Shown piece after piece: positions 177 through 37,144 of a stretch of DNA of 37,144 nt. The notes beneath the pieces are model-generated. The model was not told the DNA's origin and ran no database searches. It was given only the letters and a program-made list of their open reading frames with translations. Position 1 is the stretch's first letter. Each line of letters starts with the position of its first letter. The stretch is from a virus (lineage: Duplodnaviria > Caudoviricetes): the IMG/VR virus record IMGVR_UViG_3300016467_000217, positions 1 to 37,144 of that record; one strand, written 5' to 3'. A program made the position numbers and the translations under genes.

Positions 177-482
177 TTACCCTATGAGGTCAAGTGCATC
201 TTGAACACTCCTCACCACTCCGGCAATGCCTCCGCAGTATTGAACGCGCCAGATGAAGTTTTCCTGATCCTTTGTTGTCCTGCCTGTTTTGGTTTTGACC
301 TCAACGGCAAGGAACCGGCCATCTGGCGCAATGCCGATAATGTCGCTTGACCCTCTGCATAATCCAAACTTGACCGGCCTGCCGTACTTATCCGCAAGGG
401 CTCCCGTGTTGTTACGCCAAACCATGCAGCCTGCTTCTGAAAGGGCAATCATGATCTCGTGCATGAGAGTTCGTTCGGTCAT
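177..482 (-). CDS. VRR-NUC domain nuclease
   Basis: MTE..., WRNNTG, GSSDIIG, FLAVEVK, Q..F..V...GG.AGVVRS pattern typical of phage VRR-NUC proteins. Confidence 0.9.
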   Translation of the reverse strand: MTERTLMHEIMIALSEAGCMVWRNNTGALADKYGRPVKFGLCRGSSDIIGIAPDGRFLAVEVKTKTGRTTKDQENFIWRVQYCGGIAGVVRSVQDALDLIG

Positions 483-1882
483 ATTGCTTTTGGCTTACCT
501 TTTGGAAGAGTCATGCCTGGAGCCGAAAGCAAGTTTGGCTTGAGATAGTAAGGAACGCCTCTGGCCTTGCATTGACGTACCACGTCCCAAACCCATTCAA
601 AATCTACCGGCTTTTCTGGCACATAGCCATCAGGCTGATTGGTTGCAGTTTGAGCACCAATGACCACTAGATCGCACCATGACAAGTCGCTGAACGTGAT
701 CGGCTCTAGCATTGGCTCAAGTGAGATCCATTTCACGCCCGTAGTCTCAAATGCTTTCATCTCACGCTCAACACGATCAACATCCGCCTGTTTGATGACC
801 GAAGCGCCAAACCATGCTTTCGGCAGTGACTCAAGCATTTTGTACCGATTAGGCCACTTGGTCAGGAACAGGTATTCCCATTCCGGATTATCCATGCAGG
901 ATTCAAATATCCGCTGAATCCATTCATCTGGAACCCACTTACCAAACACATCCGCCATTGACCCAACAAACACGCGCCCATTGGCTGGATTGTCGCTTTT
1001 CGGTACTTTGGTGTTCCTTGGAGCTTTCAGTCGATATTCATAGAATGCCGGTTCAAACCCAAACGGGTAATTGGCTGCCATCTGTCCATTGTGAGTAATG
1101 GCCCGCGCATAACAAAAATCGCAACCATGCAGGCAGCCCGTGATCGGGTTCCATGTCCATGATGCCCACTCGACGTTGCCATTGGTGCTATTGAATTTCG
1201 TTTCTTGCGGTCTTGGTATCTCTTTAACCTTGCCATCTACCGTTACCACTGGAACCATTTCGCGCTGTGGTTTAGGCTCAGGCTTCGGAGCGTGTTTGGT
1301 TTCCGTTGCCAATGCAGCCACGACTTTTGCCACCGCCTCCTTGATCGGGATCTCTCCTGCCAGAACCGACTCCTTCAGCTCCGGCACTTTGTCCAGAGTC
1401 TTGGCGTCTGATTCCCATCTCTCGACAGTCGGCTTACTGACGCCTATTTCGGCTGCGTACTGTTTGGCTGAAGGTGAAGAGCCTCCATCATTTGATGGAC
1501 GCTGATTAGACCCAACCGGCTTAGTCCCCCTCATCTCCCTCAGCTTCAAATACAGCACTTTCCTTTCGTCCGCGCTCATGTGACGTCGATGGAGGTTAAG
1601 TCGCATGACGTAGCCCGGATAATCGGCAGCGTAAGCCTCGCCCAACGTAGTAAACCTTTCCGTGGCTCCAGTGACCAGTAGCGCCCGCAAGCGGTTTCTG
1701 CCGTCAAGCAAATAGCCGTCATGCGTCAGTACGACCGGGATCTCTAGTCCTTGATTGCCGATGGACTCGCACAGGTCTTGAAATTCCTGACCAGTAATGA
1801 GCGGGAAAAGATCGGCAGCAGGATGAACGCCTGCCAGATTGTAGGCTTTGACGCATTCGTCAATTGTAGGTTCTTCATACAT
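479..1882 (-). CDS. ParB-like N-terminal domain fused to DUF5131 (Gp37/Gp68) radical-SAM-like domain, 467 aa
   Basis: HPAADLFP...L..SI...G...P...LLDGRNRLRA...NLHRRH (ParB/Srx-like), HTH (AAEIGVSKPTVERW), then WNPITGCLHGCDFCYA, VFVGSMADVF, FLTKWP, WISLEPML, V.YYLK; start reassigned to ATG 1882 (AAGGAG RBS, ATGTATGA overlap). Confidence 0.88.
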   Translation of the reverse strand: MYEEPTIDECVKAYNLAGVHPAADLFPLITGQEFQDLCESIGNQGLEIPVVLTHDGYLLDGRNRLRALLVTGATERFTTLGEAYAADYPGYVMRLNLHRRHMSADERKVLYLKLREMRGTKPVGSNQRPSNDGGSSPSAKQYAAEIGVSKPTVERWESDAKTLDKVPELKESVLAGEIPIKEAVAKVVAALATETKHAPKPEPKPQREMVPVVTVDGKVKEIPRPQETKFNSTNGNVEWASWTWNPITGCLHGCDFCYARAITHNGQMAANYPFGFEPAFYEYRLKAPRNTKVPKSDNPANGRVFVGSMADVFGKWVPDEWIQRIFESCMDNPEWEYLFLTKWPNRYKMLESLPKAWFGASVIKQADVDRVEREMKAFETTGVKWISLEPMLEPITFSDLSWCDLVVIGAQTATNQPDGYVPEKPVDFEWVWDVVRQCKARGVPYYLKPNLLSAPGMTLPKGKPKAI

Positions 1883-2648
1883 TGGAAAGCTCCTTCTTTG
1901 TCTTAAACAAGGCGTGAACCAAATGAGAAAAAGCATTGGTCTCGGTCTTGAACCATGCACCAACGACTTCGTATCCGGAATCCTTAAACGCCTGACTAAA
2001 AGCCTTCTCTGTTTGCGCTCGCCACTTGTCTGGCTGATTGACCAGATAAGCCCATTGCGCAGCATCTCCCTTAAGCGTGACCAGATATGCGTCATGCCAC
2101 GACTGCAATAGCGCAAGTTGCGCATTGAGGTGGTCATACCATAAATTCCTTTGCTCTTGCGGCAGTCTTTTAAGACCTCCTACATTGCAACCTAGCGTTG
2201 AAAATACAGTGGTTAATTGCGGGGCATACCGAAGCGCATCAGGCAGCGCCCAATCGTTGATTGTGTTTGGGTCATTGGAAACAAACAAAACCGAATCCCT
2301 GCGCCAGATAGGAATCATATTGTGCGAATCACCATGAATAACATTGCGATGCGGAATAGCCAGCTTAAGCGTTTCTATTGATCCCGGAGTCTTCTCGTAA
2401 AAAACCGATTCAGTTCTAATGCCTTTTGACTCTAGCCACAACAAATGCCGATCAATGATTCCTGGACTTGTGGCTGTGCTGAATTCACTTGATATGCCAT
2501 CCCCTGCTGTGCAATCCACAGCCGAAAATAACTTGTTTTTGAACTTGATTGAATGTACACCAACGGTCATTCCTAAGATTCGATCTAAGGCGCTGTGTTT
2601 CCCCGGTGTACGGTGTGACTTACCGACTCCACCTTCAATTTTTGCCAT
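1875..2648 (-). CDS. Three-Cys-motif partner (TcmP-like) SAM-dependent methyltransferase-fold protein, 257 aa
   Basis: T..KH..L, VDCTAGDG (motif-I-like), SPG, FYEK, GDS, NDP motifs; adjacent to DUF5131 as typical for this family; start ATG 2648 with GGAG RBS. Confidence 0.7.
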   Translation of the reverse strand: MAKIEGGVGKSHRTPGKHSALDRILGMTVGVHSIKFKNKLFSAVDCTAGDGISSEFSTATSPGIIDRHLLWLESKGIRTESVFYEKTPGSIETLKLAIPHRNVIHGDSHNMIPIWRRDSVLFVSNDPNTINDWALPDALRYAPQLTTVFSTLGCNVGGLKRLPQEQRNLWYDHLNAQLALLQSWHDAYLVTLKGDAAQWAYLVNQPDKWRAQTEKAFSQAFKDSGYEVVGAWFKTETNAFSHLVHALFKTKKELSNV

Positions 2649-2661
2649 TTCTAACTCCAAT

Positions 2662-2766
2662 AAAAAAGCCGTCTTACTTTCTCCGGTAGCTATTGGGTGA
2701 GTGAACCCTCGGAGTCGGCAAGGCGGCTTTCCTAAAAGCACTCATATCAGGCTAGCTACAGCCCAA
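2662..2766 (-). ncRNA. C4/CI-like structured antisense-type RNA with terminator stem
   Basis: 13-bp stem (2730-2718 / 2677-2665, one mismatch) plus U6; internal CACTCA and TAGCTAC are complementary to upstream TGAGTG and GTAGCTA. Confidence 0.55.
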
Positions 2767-2770
2767 ACCA

Positions 2771-2779
2771 ATTATATCA
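2771..2779 (-). promoter_or_regulatory. Extended -10 sigma70 promoter TGATATAAT
   Basis: Perfect TGn-TATAAT overlapping the upstream TGA stop, directly before the structured leader. Confidence 0.65.
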
Positions 2780-2938
2780 CCTTCCAAGCATCTCCTTCAG
2801 CGCCTCAGCCCTCGCCGTTGCCTCGCTTGTGCCGTCAGCCATCTTGATAGCCACGCGCTCGATAAATGCCTCCAATTGCTCAAGCGTTGCCAATGGATAG
2901 GCGTTCGTGAGCCACAGCTCGTCCTGATATGCGCTCAT
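2777..2938 (-). CDS. Small hypothetical protein, 53 aa
   Basis: ATGA overlap with helicase stop; F.ER.AI...DG motif seen in small phage replication-region proteins. Confidence 0.65.
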   Translation of the reverse strand: MSAYQDELWLTNAYPLATLEQLEAFIERVAIKMADGTSEATARAEALKEMLGR

Positions 2939-4344
2939 AAATACTGCCTCGCTTCCGTAAACATGGCAGGCGTATGCTTCACGCGCATTCGTGCCGCATA
3001 GGTCATCACGGCCCACTCAGCTGGTTTACTGAGACCTCGACGCTTGCCTAATTCCACCAGGTCTCTTAAGGTTCGCGCCGATGCCTGCTCTTTCTTTTTA
3101 GCGCGTCTAGCCGCTTCAATATCAATGGCTTTGAGTTCGCCTTCCTGAAACTTGATCTCTCGGTTTTCGGTAAGCAATGACTCTGAGCACACTGGGCATA
3201 CTTTTGGTCCCGGCCTAAATACCGAATAGCATTTTGGGCACTGTTTGATCGTTGGCTTGTCGCTATCTGATGATCGCTTTTTCTTAGGGTCAGGATTGAG
3301 ACTCCATTCTCGCTCATCATCGGGTAGCCCATGCCTATGCCAATTGCCGACGTGATCCAAAATAATCAACGCGGGCTTGCCATCTGCCGGTCTAAACCCA
3401 CGCCCATTGCCTTGCATCCAGATGATGAGGCTTGCTGTCGGTCTCAGCCATTGCACCGCTTCAATCGCAGGAACGTCCACACCTTCAATGAGTAGCTCCA
3501 CATTTGTAAGAACCTTAGTCTCACCTGATGCAATACGCGCAAGGATGGCCTGCCTTTCAGCTGATGGCGTTGCGCCGTCCATATGCTCTGCCTTGATGCC
3601 TTTACTGTTGTAAGCCTCACAAACGTGTTCGGCGTGTTTGATCGTCGCGCACATGACCACGCACCGCTTGCCGTTCGCATATTTCAGATAATGCTCAACC
3701 GCATCGCCGGTCACGGTCGGCTTGTCCATGATATTTTCAAGGTCGCTTGCCGCATAGTCGCCCATGCGCGTTTTGATGCCTTCCATGCTGACCTTGGTTT
3801 CAGTTCCATAAAGCTGATAAGGACAGAGATAGCCCGTCCCGATCAAATCGCCTACCGATGGCCCGATAACCATATCCTCAAATACATCAGCCAGTCCTTT
3901 TCCATCCGTCCGTTGAGGTGTTGCCGTGAGGCCAACAATTCGCGCTTTTGGATAGGCTTCAATAATCGTTCTATAAGTATTCGCCGCTGCTCGATGCGCT
4001 TCGTCAATGATAATCAACCCAGGCGCTTGCACCTTGTCCAGTCTCCTTACAAGCGTCTGCACCGATGCCACCTGTACCGGCGTCCGCGTCATGGTCTTAC
4101 CGACTGCGATAATGCCATGCTGCAACTTTTGCTCCCAAAGCGCACGGCTGGTCTGCGTCAGTAGCGTGTCACGGTGAACACAAAAAATGCTACTGATGCC
4201 CTTTGATGCCGCCGCCGCCATCATATGAACGGTAAGAGCAGTCTTACCGGCCCCGGTTGCCGCCACCAATAGCGTTGATCGATGTGACTGGAGGGATAGG
4301 CGGGCCGAGGTGATGAGGTCTTGCTGATATGGCCTGAGCTTCAT
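2935..4344 (-). CDS. SF2 DEAD/DEAH-box helicase with C-terminal zinc finger
   Basis: LRPYQ, ATGAGKT, DEAH, LTATP, EGVDVP, QGNGRGFR; CPKC...CPVC. Confidence 0.95.
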   Translation of the reverse strand: MKLRPYQQDLITSARLSLQSHRSTLLVAATGAGKTALTVHMMAAAASKGISSIFCVHRDTLLTQTSRALWEQKLQHGIIAVGKTMTRTPVQVASVQTLVRRLDKVQAPGLIIIDEAHRAAANTYRTIIEAYPKARIVGLTATPQRTDGKGLADVFEDMVIGPSVGDLIGTGYLCPYQLYGTETKVSMEGIKTRMGDYAASDLENIMDKPTVTGDAVEHYLKYANGKRCVVMCATIKHAEHVCEAYNSKGIKAEHMDGATPSAERQAILARIASGETKVLTNVELLIEGVDVPAIEAVQWLRPTASLIIWMQGNGRGFRPADGKPALIILDHVGNWHRHGLPDDEREWSLNPDPKKKRSSDSDKPTIKQCPKCYSVFRPGPKVCPVCSESLLTENREIKFQEGELKAIDIEAARRAKKKEQASARTLRDLVELGKRRGLSKPAEWAVMTYAARMRVKHTPAMFTEARQYL

Positions 4345-6659: not shown

Positions 6660-6676
6660 TCTGAGTCCCTAACTTG

Positions 6677-6704
6677 CCCCGGTTTAATCGCCGGGGATTT
6701 TTTT
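6677..6704 (+). terminator. Rho-independent terminator
   Basis: CCCCGG-8 nt-CCGGGG followed by ATTTTTTT. Confidence 0.8.
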
Positions 6705-6726
6705 GTGCCGATTACAGGAGATAGGC

Positions 6727-6957
6727 ATGGAATATGATCAATTTGTGGCCAACAAGCGCCGCGCCGAAATTGCAACTGGCCATGCGCCAGGCGCCCTCAA
6801 CAGTAACCTTTTTGACTTTCAGCAGGCCATCGTAGCTTGCGCCGTTCGTATGGGTCGTCGATTTATTGGGACAGAGCTTAAGCCTCAGTATTTTGATCTG
6901 GCCTGCCAAAACCTTGCCGAAGCATCAGGCGCACAACAGGCCGACCTATGGACATAA
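6727..6957 (+). pseudogene. In-frame deletion remnant: N-terminus of an SNF2-type phage helicase joined to the C-terminus of an N4/N6 DNA methyltransferase
   Basis: MEYDQFV..K...G......LFDFQ.AIV..AVR followed by GRRFIGTELKPQYFDLACQNL. Confidence 0.7.
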
Positions 6958-35497: not shown

Positions 35498-35735
35498 TGG
35501 CTGTATCCCTTGCGTGGCGTGGCTTTCAGCGATTTCAGTGTAACCAGTGCAAGTGAAACACGTTTTCTACTATGTATTTTTTTACGCGCATATTGCGTGT
35601 GCTGTAGCCCTTTTTTTTATTTATAGTCTTTTATAGATATAGGTTACACTGGTTACACTATAGGTATAAAAATAAGCAAAATCAGCAACTTATGACAGTG
35701 CAACCTAGAAATCAGGTTGCCCTGAGGTTGCCCTG
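35490..35735. repeat. Iteron-like GGTT(G/A)C(A/C)CT repeats around an AT-rich core; putative replication origin
   Basis: Copies at 35490, 35642, 35651, 35715, 35726 (+) and 35536, 35545 (partial), 35696 (-). Confidence 0.65.
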
Positions 35736-37144
35736 TTTTTTGGCGCTTTGACCAGACTAAGGCCATTTGACCGTTTGCGTTGGTTCCCGTTGCGCCTTCC
35801 GATGTAGCCACCGGCTGCTGTTGCATCGGATCGAGTTGGTCGGTCAATGCCAACACTAATCAAGATGTCGGTGACGGTTTTCCACTCCCAAAGTGACTCT
35901 GGATCGTCCCAGGCAAGGCGCGTATCAATGCGCTCAGCAATAGGATCGATGGATGTAAATTGCTCATTGTGAGCATTTAAAAGATCCATTTCCTCAGCGG
36001 TAAGAAAATAGGATTCGCCTTCTCTGTAGTAATGAAGAATTTCGGCCCAAAGCTGCTGCATATCAATATCATGCGTATGCTTAATGGTTGCCGCTTCAAT
36101 AGTCCAAAATCGTCGATTACCTGTTGGATCATTTAGAAATTGTTTTGGATTGACTGATCCAAAAAATACAGTTCGACGGGCATAGTGGGATTTTTTTCGA
36201 GCGTATGCTCTTCGCAATACATCCGACTTATTGGTGATGAACGCTTTCAAAGCCGCAATATCGGACTTTCTAAAAGTTGAATCCAGTTCTCCCAATTCAA
36301 CCATCCAAAATGAACAGGCTTGCTCTACAGAATCCTTGTCATCAGGTCTCAACATCATGCCTTCCTTCAAAAGCTCAAGCTCTTCAGGAACTAATGACTT
36401 GAACCATTTCGTCTTGCCAAGATACTGATCGCCTTGGATCACAAGAATGCCTGGCGCGGCTACACCTGTTGGTGAGAATGCAGCGGCAATGGCAGACAAA
36501 AGCCATCGACGGATGAGGATCTCTTTTAGATCATTGTCTTGATTGTTGACGCAAGTGATGGTTTCGAACAAAGAAACGATGCGTTCTTGGCCGTCCCAAG
36601 GCTTTGATTCAATCCAAGTTGCAACCGGGTTGTAGAGATTCTGATCGGCCAGGAATGTCAAAAACTCTGGCACTTTGGCGGTTGGATAGCCAAACCTTGA
36701 GCATTCGGAGATGATCCATGCAAGGCTTGCGTTGTCTTTGTTATCGACGCTAAATGACTTGCCTGGAATAAGGATCTCGTCATCCTTGCTGATGACGTTA
36801 TAGCGAACATTAACGCCTAGCCTGTCGATGATTTGTTTTAGGTTGTCGATATGCGCCAATGGCTTTCCTTTATCGTTGCAATGCTTGAGAGGTTCCCAGT
36901 AATTAACGACAACCTCAGGAGCCTGAATGGTTGCCTCGGTCTGTATTGGCTCCTGATACTCCCAAAGCGGCGCCGCCTTGCAGATGTTGACTAGAGTTTC
37001 TTTTGTCCCTCCTGCCGCAATCCAGTCCGATATATCGCCTTTTTCTGGTAGCCCCGGCAACTCAATGATGCGGATGGACGTGGCCACGTTGCGTAGCTTG
37101 CAGGCCACCATGTGAGCGTGATCGGTCCCGGCTTTGTCATTGTC
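35705..37144 (-). CDS. Primase-helicase (TOPRIM end plus VapE-like P-loop domain), 5'-truncated
   Basis: Open from the edge: DNDKAG, KGDISDW; G.QYLGKT, VELGEL, YAR, FL.DPTGNRRFW, QLWAE. Confidence 0.92.
   Translation of the reverse strand, partial: DNDKAGTDHAHMVACKLRNVATSIRIIELPGLPEKGDISDWIAAGGTKETLVNICKAAPLWEYQEPIQTEATIQAPEVVVNYWEPLKHCNDKGKPLAHIDNLKQIIDRLGVNVRYNVISKDDEILIPGKSFSVDNKDNASLAWIISECSRFGYPTAKVPEFLTFLADQNLYNPVATWIESKPWDGQERIVSLFETITCVNNQDNDLKEILIRRWLLSAIAAAFSPTGVAAPGILVIQGDQYLGKTKWFKSLVPEELELLKEGMMLRPDDKDSVEQACSFWMVELGELDSTFRKSDIAALKAFITNKSDVLRRAYARKKSHYARRTVFFGSVNPKQFLNDPTGNRRFWTIEAATIKHTHDIDMQQLWAEILHYYREGESYFLTAEEMDLLNAHNEQFTSIDPIAERIDTRLAWDDPESLWEWKTVTDILISVGIDRPTRSDATAAGGYIGRRNGNQRKRSNGLSLVKAPKNRATSGQPDF

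Follow-up and report, generated by a model that had tools for sequence, protein, structure and literature searches.

A two-gene accessory cassette of an uncultured phage pairs a predicted RlmJ-like methyltransferase with a ParB-linked radical-SAM domain and likely targets DNA

What does a small, optional gene pair among the replication genes of an uncultured phage do, and on which substrate does it act? The window analysed here is the whole stretch of 37,144 nt from that phage. A sequence-only reading had singled out two coupled genes as a candidate DNA-modification or conflict system, a TcmP-like methyltransferase followed by a ParB-HTH-DUF5131 radical-SAM fusion, inserted next to a VRR-NUC gene with a promoter and leader of their own. 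Both open reading frames were confirmed.

1875..2648, minus strand: gene 1, 257 aa, a divergent TcmP-related protein with a predicted RlmJ-like class I methyltransferase fold (K17, H18, D45, S61, E85, D107, D126-P127-N128)
479..1882, minus strand: gene 2, 467 aa, a ParB-like N-domain, HTH, linker and DUF5131 radical-SAM domain; its start overlaps the gene 1 stop (ATGTATGA)

Gene 1 (2648-1875) and gene 2 (1882-479) are coupled, overlapping by 8 nt within ATGTATGA, and the end of gene 2 in turn overlaps the VRR-NUC start at 482. Of 61 loci that extend at least 1.4 kb downstream (not de-duplicated), 59 have the two genes side by side, and both evolve under purifying selection, with dN/dS of 0.06 and 0.05. 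In some actinobacterial loci a short gap separates them.

The insertion is real. Two phages whose helicases are 90-92% identical to that of the window lack the cassette together with its promoter and leader: L266 is missing window positions ~477-2788 and L267 positions ~468-2785. The cassette is therefore an accessory insert. In one contig the same slot carries other cargo. No gene-1 match was found among 50,697 GenBank phage records, and most of the cassette is present in three sequencing runs from freshwater metagenomes of two studies, one perhaps the source itself. The one RNA run shared 7% of words and gave short contigs only 90-99% alike, and thus provides no evidence of expression.

The earlier reading had also connected the cassette with the loss of a conventional methylase elsewhere in the window.

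6727..6957, plus strand: SNF2-helicase/DNA-methylase remnant after internal deletion; context, outside the cassette

The deletion itself stands: in the remnant, the beginning of an SNF2-type gene, 91% identical to L001 across 44 aa, runs into the closing part of an N6/N4-type methylase. The proposed connection does not. L001/L265 carries the cassette as well as a separate PHROG-757 methyltransferase and an SNF2-type ORF that runs without interruption for at least 341 aa and is still open at the locus edge, in L026 the cassette is directly preceded by an intact SNF2 gene and methylase gene, and L266 has an intact SNF2-methylase without the cassette. Since a close relative has both the cassette and methylase genes, we rejected the idea that the cassette substitutes for the deleted enzyme. 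Within the fetched flank, 14 of 72 pair loci have a conventional methylase, compared with 29 of 97 DUF5131 loci of other kinds; methylases are therefore not enriched near the pair.

The identity of gene 1 emerges from its relatives. Direct scans of Pfam, NCBIfam, PHROG and PADLOC gave no match, and TIGR04474 does not match the window protein at E<=0.1; the same profile matches 39 of 90 gene-1 homologues at this threshold (best 3.4e-8). D45, G49, G51, S61 and D126 are invariant in an alignment that includes five above-cut-off TcmP members, and gene 1 is encoded beside a PF07505 gene, the genomic context of the TcmP family. These alignments indicate that gene 1 is a remote TcmP relative, detectable through its homologues only.

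The proposed Rossmann methyltransferase fold was borne out by structure prediction. The gene 1 model (pLDDT 92.8) has as its top match RlmJ, the 23S rRNA m6A2030 methyltransferase (PDB 6qe5), with a Foldseek E of 2e-9 and a VIA Z of 14.3 (rmsd 3.3, 204 residues; next unrelated row 12.0), and model and alignment together predict a class I methyltransferase fold that includes SAM-binding motifs I-III. An alignment of 19 rows places D45/S61/E85/D107/D126/P127 opposite D40/S100/E118/D143/D164/P165 of RlmJ. According to the RlmJ study (PMC3814359), SAM is contacted by S100, E118, D143, D164 and H19, the catalytic residues are K18/D164, and the active site is most similar to those of DNA m6A methyltransferases; the substrate there is RNA, and ssDNA is not methylated by RlmJ. 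K17, H18, D45, S61, D126, P127 and N128 are invariant in all 90 homologues; the helix 1 KH pair, K17-H18, sits one column off RlmJ K18-H19 in the MAFFT alignment.

The likeness has limits. Gene 1 is only 15% identical to RlmJ, its partner is a radical-SAM fusion, and the RlmJ helical insert is absent from it in the alignment. Run against PDB sequences, the gene-1 profile returned nothing below E 0.2, profile comparison with E. coli RlmJ was not significant (hhalign probability 0.6%), and Pfam RsmJ did not match. Motif IV reads DPN, with N128 invariant, unlike the DPPY of RlmJ and the D/N-P-P-Y/F pattern in general, and RlmJ Y4, H6, Y167 and W195 have no counterpart. The base-binding side therefore differs, and adenine methylation by gene 1 may not occur. 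C154, near the active site of the predicted fold, is also invariant (90/90).

Gene 2 has the ParB-HTH-DUF5131 architecture that had been proposed for it.

1517..1852, minus strand: ParB/Noc-like N-terminal domain, about aa 11-122, with a DGRNR motif
1388..1474, minus strand: predicted helix-turn-helix, about aa 137-165, helices 139-146 and 150-164
539..1177, minus strand: DUF5131 (PF07505) domain, aa 236-448, with Cx3Cx2C at 1135-1112

The match to PF07505 is unambiguous (129.9 bits, HMM cut-off 28.9). The ParB relation is seen only with a family profile, whose Noc/ParB match spans positions 28-209; Pfam ParB_N does not match gene 2 itself. D60, G61, R62, R64 and N96 are invariant in 103 of 103. 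As in the CTP-dependent ParB/Noc clamps, a GxxR-type motif, part of an arginine-rich patch, lies in a predicted ParB N-domain fold and an HTH follows. Unlike in those clamps, the motif is GRNR rather than GERR and the cargo is a radical-SAM domain. The Glu of GERR, replaced by Arg in gene 2, has a hydrolytic role. No clear parS-like palindrome or repeat array was found in positions 400-3000, and a scan of 34 ORFs detected no ParA. Phage ParB-linked methylase loci (PMC4738411) offer a comparison for this arrangement.

The C-terminal domain is a predicted iron-sulfur radical-SAM enzyme. Its partial TIM-barrel model has radical-SAM enzymes as its top VIA rows, led by spore photoproduct lyase (SPL; PDB 4fhc), a DNA-acting radical-SAM enzyme that shares Cx3Cx2C (Z 13.9, rmsd 3.6, 220 residues; next 11.2) and is 12% identical. 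SPL lacks the N-terminal ParB-HTH and the methyltransferase-fold partner. By sequence profiles, PF04055 (Radical SAM) stayed below its cut-off (19.6 versus 29.5 bits), as did rSAM_mob_pairA (88.7 versus 355), and no SPL family HMM was among the Pfam/NCBIfam matches. C250, C254 and C257 are invariant in 145 of 145 domains. The canonical spacing noted earlier (CLHGCDFC, 1135-1112) is present and differs from the Cx6Cx2C of four of the five GenBank phage DUF5131 proteins checked, yet it is no special trait of this phage: a gene-2 profile search, whose sample leans towards relatives, gave 160 loci, and 159 of them have Cx3Cx2C, which thus marks a large subfamily.

The pair is already catalogued. 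TcmP (TIGR04474) and DUF5131 (phage Gp37-Gp68, PF07505) occur together as the PADLOC candidates PDC-M30/PDC-M41, and the cassette likewise joins one member of each family as coupled neighbours; gene 2 matches PDC-M41B (E about 5e-36) and PDC-M30B (E about 4e-35), and PDC-M30A is matched by 18 of 90 gene-1 homologues. Unlike the catalogued pair, gene 1 escapes TIGR04474, gene 2 is a Cx3Cx2C protein fused to ParB-HTH, and the cassette sits in a phage replication module. A full-text literature search, to which the PADLOC preprint supplements that would define PDC-M30/M41 did not belong, returned no functional study of TcmP or DUF5131.

Natural fusions bear on the substrate. Among the 120 proteins listed, DUF5131 carries ParB_N on 16 and DUF3102 on 22, and three are Dam-DUF5131 fusions, few in number and perhaps of one lineage; one locus (L119) encodes TcmP and DUF5131 as a single chain. 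At the majority of short unfused DUF5131 loci, the gene-1 profile finds no match. The ParB fusion of gene 2 points to DNA as the substrate, and the TcmP-DUF5131 and Dam-DUF5131 fusions point to a joint action that would take place on DNA. DNA is thus the likely target of the cassette, as had been suggested, and the gene pair likely places a chemical modification on DNA of the phage itself.

How would such a pair be expressed? The leader region holds the following elements.

2771..2779, minus strand: extended -10 promoter-like element TGATATAAT, called from sequence, with a weak -35; identical in L001
2747..2766, minus strand: leader 5' hairpin P0, whose loop and 3' side hold segment a (2759-2753)
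2662..2730, minus strand: long terminator-like stem P1, arms 2730-2710 / 2685-2665, with inner hairpin P2, a bulged segment a* (2692-2686) complementary to a, and a U-tract at 2667-2662
2655..2658, minus strand: Shine-Dalgarno GGAG, called from sequence, 6 nt upstream of the ATG at 2648

TGATATAAT is the sole TGnTATAAT of the window; with 0.83 expected by chance, the motif on its own proves nothing, and a sigma-70 scan of the window did not list it because its -35 is weak. The candidate gains support since it lies 4 nt ahead of the leader hairpin and adjoins the insert boundary. By eye, -35/-10-like hexamers stand at the same place in many relatives. The leader alone folds modestly (z -1.69), but its architecture covaries across relatives, and segment a and its complement carry a compensatory change relative to L001. 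An exact search with the 3' 18-mer of the leader hit 26 loci, 25 of which are unrelated terminator-plus-RBS sequences.

In type, this self-pairing, covarying hairpin/terminator RNA is C4/CI-like. As in C4 (RF01695) and the P4 CI RNA, its exposed segment covaries with a complementary upstream site and varies between close relatives. The P1/P7 C4 antisense RNA (PMC5320573) is a promoter-proximal multi-stem leader, and its exposed part is the complement of a stretch that lies upstream. Unlike C4, the cassette leader has no Rfam covariance-model match (window and 15 related loci), its cargo is an enzyme cassette rather than an antirepressor, and it has one complementary segment with no second target downstream, exact matches to the 7-mer in the window being the two paired segments only. 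By analogy with these RNAs, the leader likely gates read-through into the cassette. Pairing of the two segments in cis would prevent the terminator stem from forming, and accumulated short leader RNA, bound in trans to the loop of segment a, would bring termination back; the outcome may be a burst of expression after entry, then shut-off.

We tentatively propose, as an explanation with a serious but not commanding chance of being right, that the cassette carries out ParB-tethered methylation and radical elaboration of a base in the phage's own DNA by two coupled SAM-dependent steps. Gene 1, being RlmJ-like, is predicted to methylate an exocyclic amine, most likely adenine N6; the ParB-HTH module would hold the radical-SAM domain on DNA; and this domain would then elaborate the methylated base via a 5'-deoxyadenosyl radical. 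Such a product, made in cis through the ParB clamp, might serve anti-restriction. Counted against this proposal are that the cassette is dispensable in close relatives, that RlmJ itself is an RNA enzyme, that motif IV and the base-binding side of gene 1 depart from RlmJ, that methylases are not enriched near the pair, and that the gene-1 profile goes unmatched at the majority of short unfused DUF5131 loci. It is further tempting to speculate, though we find it doubtful in this full form, that a CTP-type ParB clamp carries the radical-SAM enzyme along the phage genome, that the base methylated by the RlmJ-like TcmP protein becomes an undescribed nucleoside, and that an uncatalogued self-pairing leader RNA, with an address that differs between close phages, sets the timing.

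The PADLOC matches of gene 2 and of gene-1 homologues would fit an outward role, in which the phage-borne pair acts on competing DNA that enters the cell, by damage or by marking, or sets off abortive infection, a role put forward for PDC-M30/PDC-M41. An optional insert in a slot with other cargo, and the short gap in actinobacterial loci, would suit such a conflict system. We nevertheless consider it unlikely: PDC status is a prediction based on location inside defence loci, and the source, in the part available to us, neither names M30/M41 nor describes a test of them; the cassette lies among replication genes; and a domain search of it found no nuclease or pore-forming domain. Repair of a DNA lesion is less probable still. 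Here the radical-SAM domain would fix a spore-photoproduct-like cross-link, ParB would scan the genome and the TcmP-like protein would be a SAM-binding lesion reader. SPL is indeed the best fold match, DUF5131 and SPL share radical-SAM Megacluster 5 (PMC9477430), and the runs with most of the cassette are freshwater metagenomes. However, when the motifs are matched by eye and without gaps, with the mutagenic primers of PMC3467042 as the guide to SPL, its H-donor C140 falls on S308, a position that is Ser in 144 of 145 domains, and C140S SPL leaves an unquenched radical adduct (PMC3467042); the neighbouring residue is Cys in 126 of 145 domains but Gly (G307) in gene 2. Lesion repair would also leave the kept methyltransferase catalytic residues and the Dam fusions unexplained.

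A small molecule, nucleotide or RNA could instead be the substrate, with a viperin-like nucleotide or an altered SAM cofactor as an example of the product, and with ParB-HTH serving only autoregulation or localisation. RlmJ acts on rRNA, gene 2 also gives Z 10-11 with viperin and other radical-SAM enzymes of small molecules, and the invariant C154 could serve other chemistry. The fold matches of gene 1 include 8yf3, a DNA carboxymethyltransferase that uses Cx-SAM, which indicates that altered-SAM routes exist. Yet C154 is not conserved in the wider TcmP rows, and the interchangeable DNA-binding N-modules (ParB, DUF3102) and the Dam fusions fit DNA better, so we regard a substrate of this kind as rather improbable.

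TcmP and DUF5131 occur widely, in phages and archaea as well as in defence loci, and the cassette offers residues for mutation in both proteins: K17, D126 and C154 in gene 1, and C250/C254/C257, S308 and R62/R64 in gene 2. Its leader is a natural switch for studying the timing with which such enzymes are produced. If a modified base is made, radical chemistry would join the repertoire of phage DNA modification and two PADLOC candidate systems would be explained. If a ParB clamp does carry the modifying enzyme along the genome, TcmP and DUF5131 would gain their first function, and duplex DNA would have a radical-SAM writer.

The cassette lies on the minus strand of a single virus record of 37,144 bases (~80% complete, tailed-phage genes present), in the order ResIII-type helicase, 79-aa ORF, gene 1, gene 2 and VRR-NUC. 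In keeping with the coupling claimed in the sequence-only reading, the two genes overlap, sharing ATGTATGA.

Features of the cassette and the methylase remnant
2648-1875, minus strand: gene 1, 257 aa
1882-479, minus strand: gene 2, 467 aa
2766-2747: first hairpin of the leader
2730-2710 and 2685-2665: arms of the leader's long stem, with an inner hairpin between
6727-6957: SNF2/methylase remnant ORF, 44 residues 91% identical to the SNF2-type N-terminus of the close relative L001, joined to a methylase C-terminal stretch

The proposed insertion between the helicase region and VRR-NUC is borne out by two close relatives, L266 and L267 (helicases 92% and 90% identical to that of the window). Both lack the whole unit, including its promoter, and the small ORF directly abuts VRR-NUC where the window carries the cassette. 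In sequencing run X4, one contig links 485 to 2654 via 799 other letters; this hints, on a side match no longer than 31 nt, that the slot accepts other cargo. By approximate counting against L001, gene 1 has a dN/dS of 0.06 and gene 2 one of 0.05, with 0.02 over the ParB part and 0.03 over the radical-SAM part. A VapE-like primase/helicase (35705-37144 and 1-176) runs off the window end; since relatives place VapE directly after VRR-NUC, the record probably wraps round.

No library model scanned matched gene 1 directly. Its TcmP likeness, claimed earlier, holds only through homologues: 101 proteins were found, and among the 90 near-full-length ones aligned (query included), 39 match TIGR04474 TcmP at E<=0.1 and 18 match component A of the PADLOC candidate system PDC-M30. 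In the Atlas, a TcmP-named cluster ranked third at 0.92. The AlphaFold model (pLDDT 92.8) predicts the class I methyltransferase fold that had been proposed, with RlmJ as the top structural match (Foldseek E 2e-9; Z 14.3, rmsd 3.3, 204 aligned in VIA). In a 19-row alignment holding TcmP members and E. coli RlmJ, D45/S61/E85/D107/D126/P127 of gene 1 align to RlmJ D40/S100/E118/D143/D164/P165; according to PMC3814359, SAM is contacted by S100, E118, D143, D164 and H19, and the essential residues are K18 and D164. However, the invariant K17-H18 of gene 1 sits one column off RlmJ K18-H19, motif IV is DPN, RlmJ Y4, H6, Y167 and W195 have no counterpart, and the profile comparison with RlmJ is not significant. 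Thus, gene 1 falls outside the RlmJ family, although the model suggests that it is built like an amino-methyltransferase.

The fusion claimed for gene 2 was recovered: residues 236-448 match DUF5131 (129.9 bits), and the N-terminal part resembles ParB, Noc and Spo0J both in profile comparison (E 2e-5) and in fold, with DGRNR and N96 largely invariant across 103 rows. Gene 2 also matches PDC-M41B/M30B. The best fold match of its model (pLDDT 92.4, pTM 0.64) is spore photoproduct lyase (SPL; Z 13.9, rmsd 3.6, 220 aligned), and RadicalSAM.org, as tabulated in PMC9477430, places DUF5131 in Megacluster-5-2 with SPL alongside in 5-3. The Cys spacing had been considered unusual for the family. Four of five GenBank phage DUF5131 members picked from 167 records indeed have Cx6Cx2C, but Cx3Cx2C is common to 159 of the 160 loci that the gene-2 profile retrieved.

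The gene-1 search yielded 87 loci (some contigs present in both collections), 61 with at least 1.4 kb downstream. A complete 435-534-aa Cx3Cx2C ORF directly follows in 59/61, mostly overlapping, and 57 of these 59 also match the ParB part. Behind the homologue in L086 (4672 onward) lies an unrelated ORF of 698 aa, and behind that in L044 one of 408 aa with the ParB part only; neither ORF has the three-Cys motif. Streptomyces and other actinobacterial genomes carry the pair as well; 50,697 GenBank phage records gave no match to gene 1. At more distant DUF5131 loci, TcmP is matched by 14 of 38 selected neighbours (6 above cut-off), and single chains fuse DUF5131 to TcmP (L119) or to a Dam methylase (L118). 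Among the 120 proteins listed in a search with the L118 protein, Dam occurs on 3, ParB_N on 16 and DUF3102 on 22; in one Dam-DUF5131 fusion, P0224, an intein-like (Hint) insert separates the methylase match from the radical-SAM match. Recurring neighbours of the pair are helicases, primases and replication initiators. DNA methylases or Mom make up 8/80 upstream ORFs, but loci with the pair show no excess of methylases (14/72 vs 29/97 other DUF5131 loci, each of at least 6 kb). Elsewhere, L204:2142-3041, the ORF that immediately precedes a ParB-DUF5131 gene, scores above cut-off as a TIGR-Tas RNA-guided endonuclease (NF052498, 203.5 bits), and thyX directly follows the cassette at L002:7191-7949 (cluster also in L003-L005). 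A gp37/ParB fusion is already named in one JGI record. Full-text literature searches, covering few subscription papers, gave nothing on PF07505 and nothing joining TcmP, radical SAM and phage; TcmP appears in annotation tables in the passages found, and neither M30 nor M41 is mentioned in the main text of the PADLOC preprint.

The structured leader was likewise confirmed. TGATATAAT is followed by a small hairpin and, beyond a linker, by a long stem that encloses an inner hairpin; a U-tract and GGAG come next. Segment a, seven bases of the first hairpin, is complementary to the seven-base segment a* in a bulge of the long stem, and L001 has one matched change in each. A detector designed after the pattern was seen found this layout in 21/90 distinct upstream regions vs 11/270 shuffles, with ~6 of the 21 looking like chance. 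The mean longest complement in 20 leaders is 9.2 nt with self vs 4.9 nt across leaders, a contrast inflated by hand-picking. RNAalifold on 10 alignable leaders, which leave out the window's own, more distant one, called 16 pairs, of which 15 show two-sided changes. With a:a* included, 81% of cells are paired and 19/21 pairs have two-sided changes; none of the 500 shuffles and none of the slid controls reaches this level, although three rows are one column out of register. Most cassette loci are without this leader, and the same layout, each time with a/a* letters specific to the site, stands ahead of an SNF2-type gene that a DNA methylase follows (L026:197-290) and ahead of a 96-aa ORF (L057:60-165); thus, the leader is a general phage module. 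The L026 and L057 contigs have two such leaders each, and L002-L005 phages carry a small ORF upstream of the cassette in place of the leader. Rfam gave no match to the leader, which is similar in logic to C4 RNA (as described in parts of PMC5320573 and PMC2864571) and may work as an attenuator. A related contig in run X2 has small indels at 2699, 2703, 2748 and 2767 (window 2655-2770); these adjoin a* or fall within or close by the first hairpin, which suggests another address variant. Window 2619-2630, early in gene 1, is complementary over 12 nt to 2711-2722 in the long-stem 5' arm, which may be chance.

The phage had also been thought to have lost its conventional methylase. The deletion at 6727-6957 is real, but its link to the cassette was rejected: L266 lacks the cassette but has an SNF2-methylase fusion of at least 542 aa; L001/L265 combines the cassette with a PHROG-757 methyltransferase and an SNF2 ORF that stays open over at least 341 aa, its methylase part lying past the fetched edge; and in L026 the cassette comes directly after SNF2 and methylase genes. 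A terminator-like inverted repeat with a U-tract (6660-6712), nearly identical in L001, precedes the remnant.

We tentatively propose, at somewhat below even odds, that gene 1 would transfer a methyl group to the amine of a DNA base and gene 2, held on DNA via ParB-HTH, would elaborate that base by radical chemistry, both being expressed in a leader-gated burst, probably to evade restriction. Methylases encoded at phage ParB loci are, according to PMC4738411, predicted to modify the DNA of the phage. That the pair is instead an outward-directed conflict system seems unlikely, and a small-molecule or RNA target is slightly more doubtful still. Lesion repair is as improbable as the latter. Across 145 DUF5131 domains, S308 and D311 hardly vary, and residue 307, a Cys in 126 of them, is Gly in the window's gene 2. 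In an ungapped by-eye reading of the SPL motif, taken from primers in PMC3467042, the H-donor C140 falls on S308; since C140S SPL leaves a radical adduct (same source), this speaks weakly against a lyase cycle.

Together, these results describe a genuine, conserved accessory insert whose biochemical role is putative. It joins a leader RNA that is not catalogued to a variant of a catalogued pair, one marked by Cx3Cx2C and fusion to ParB.
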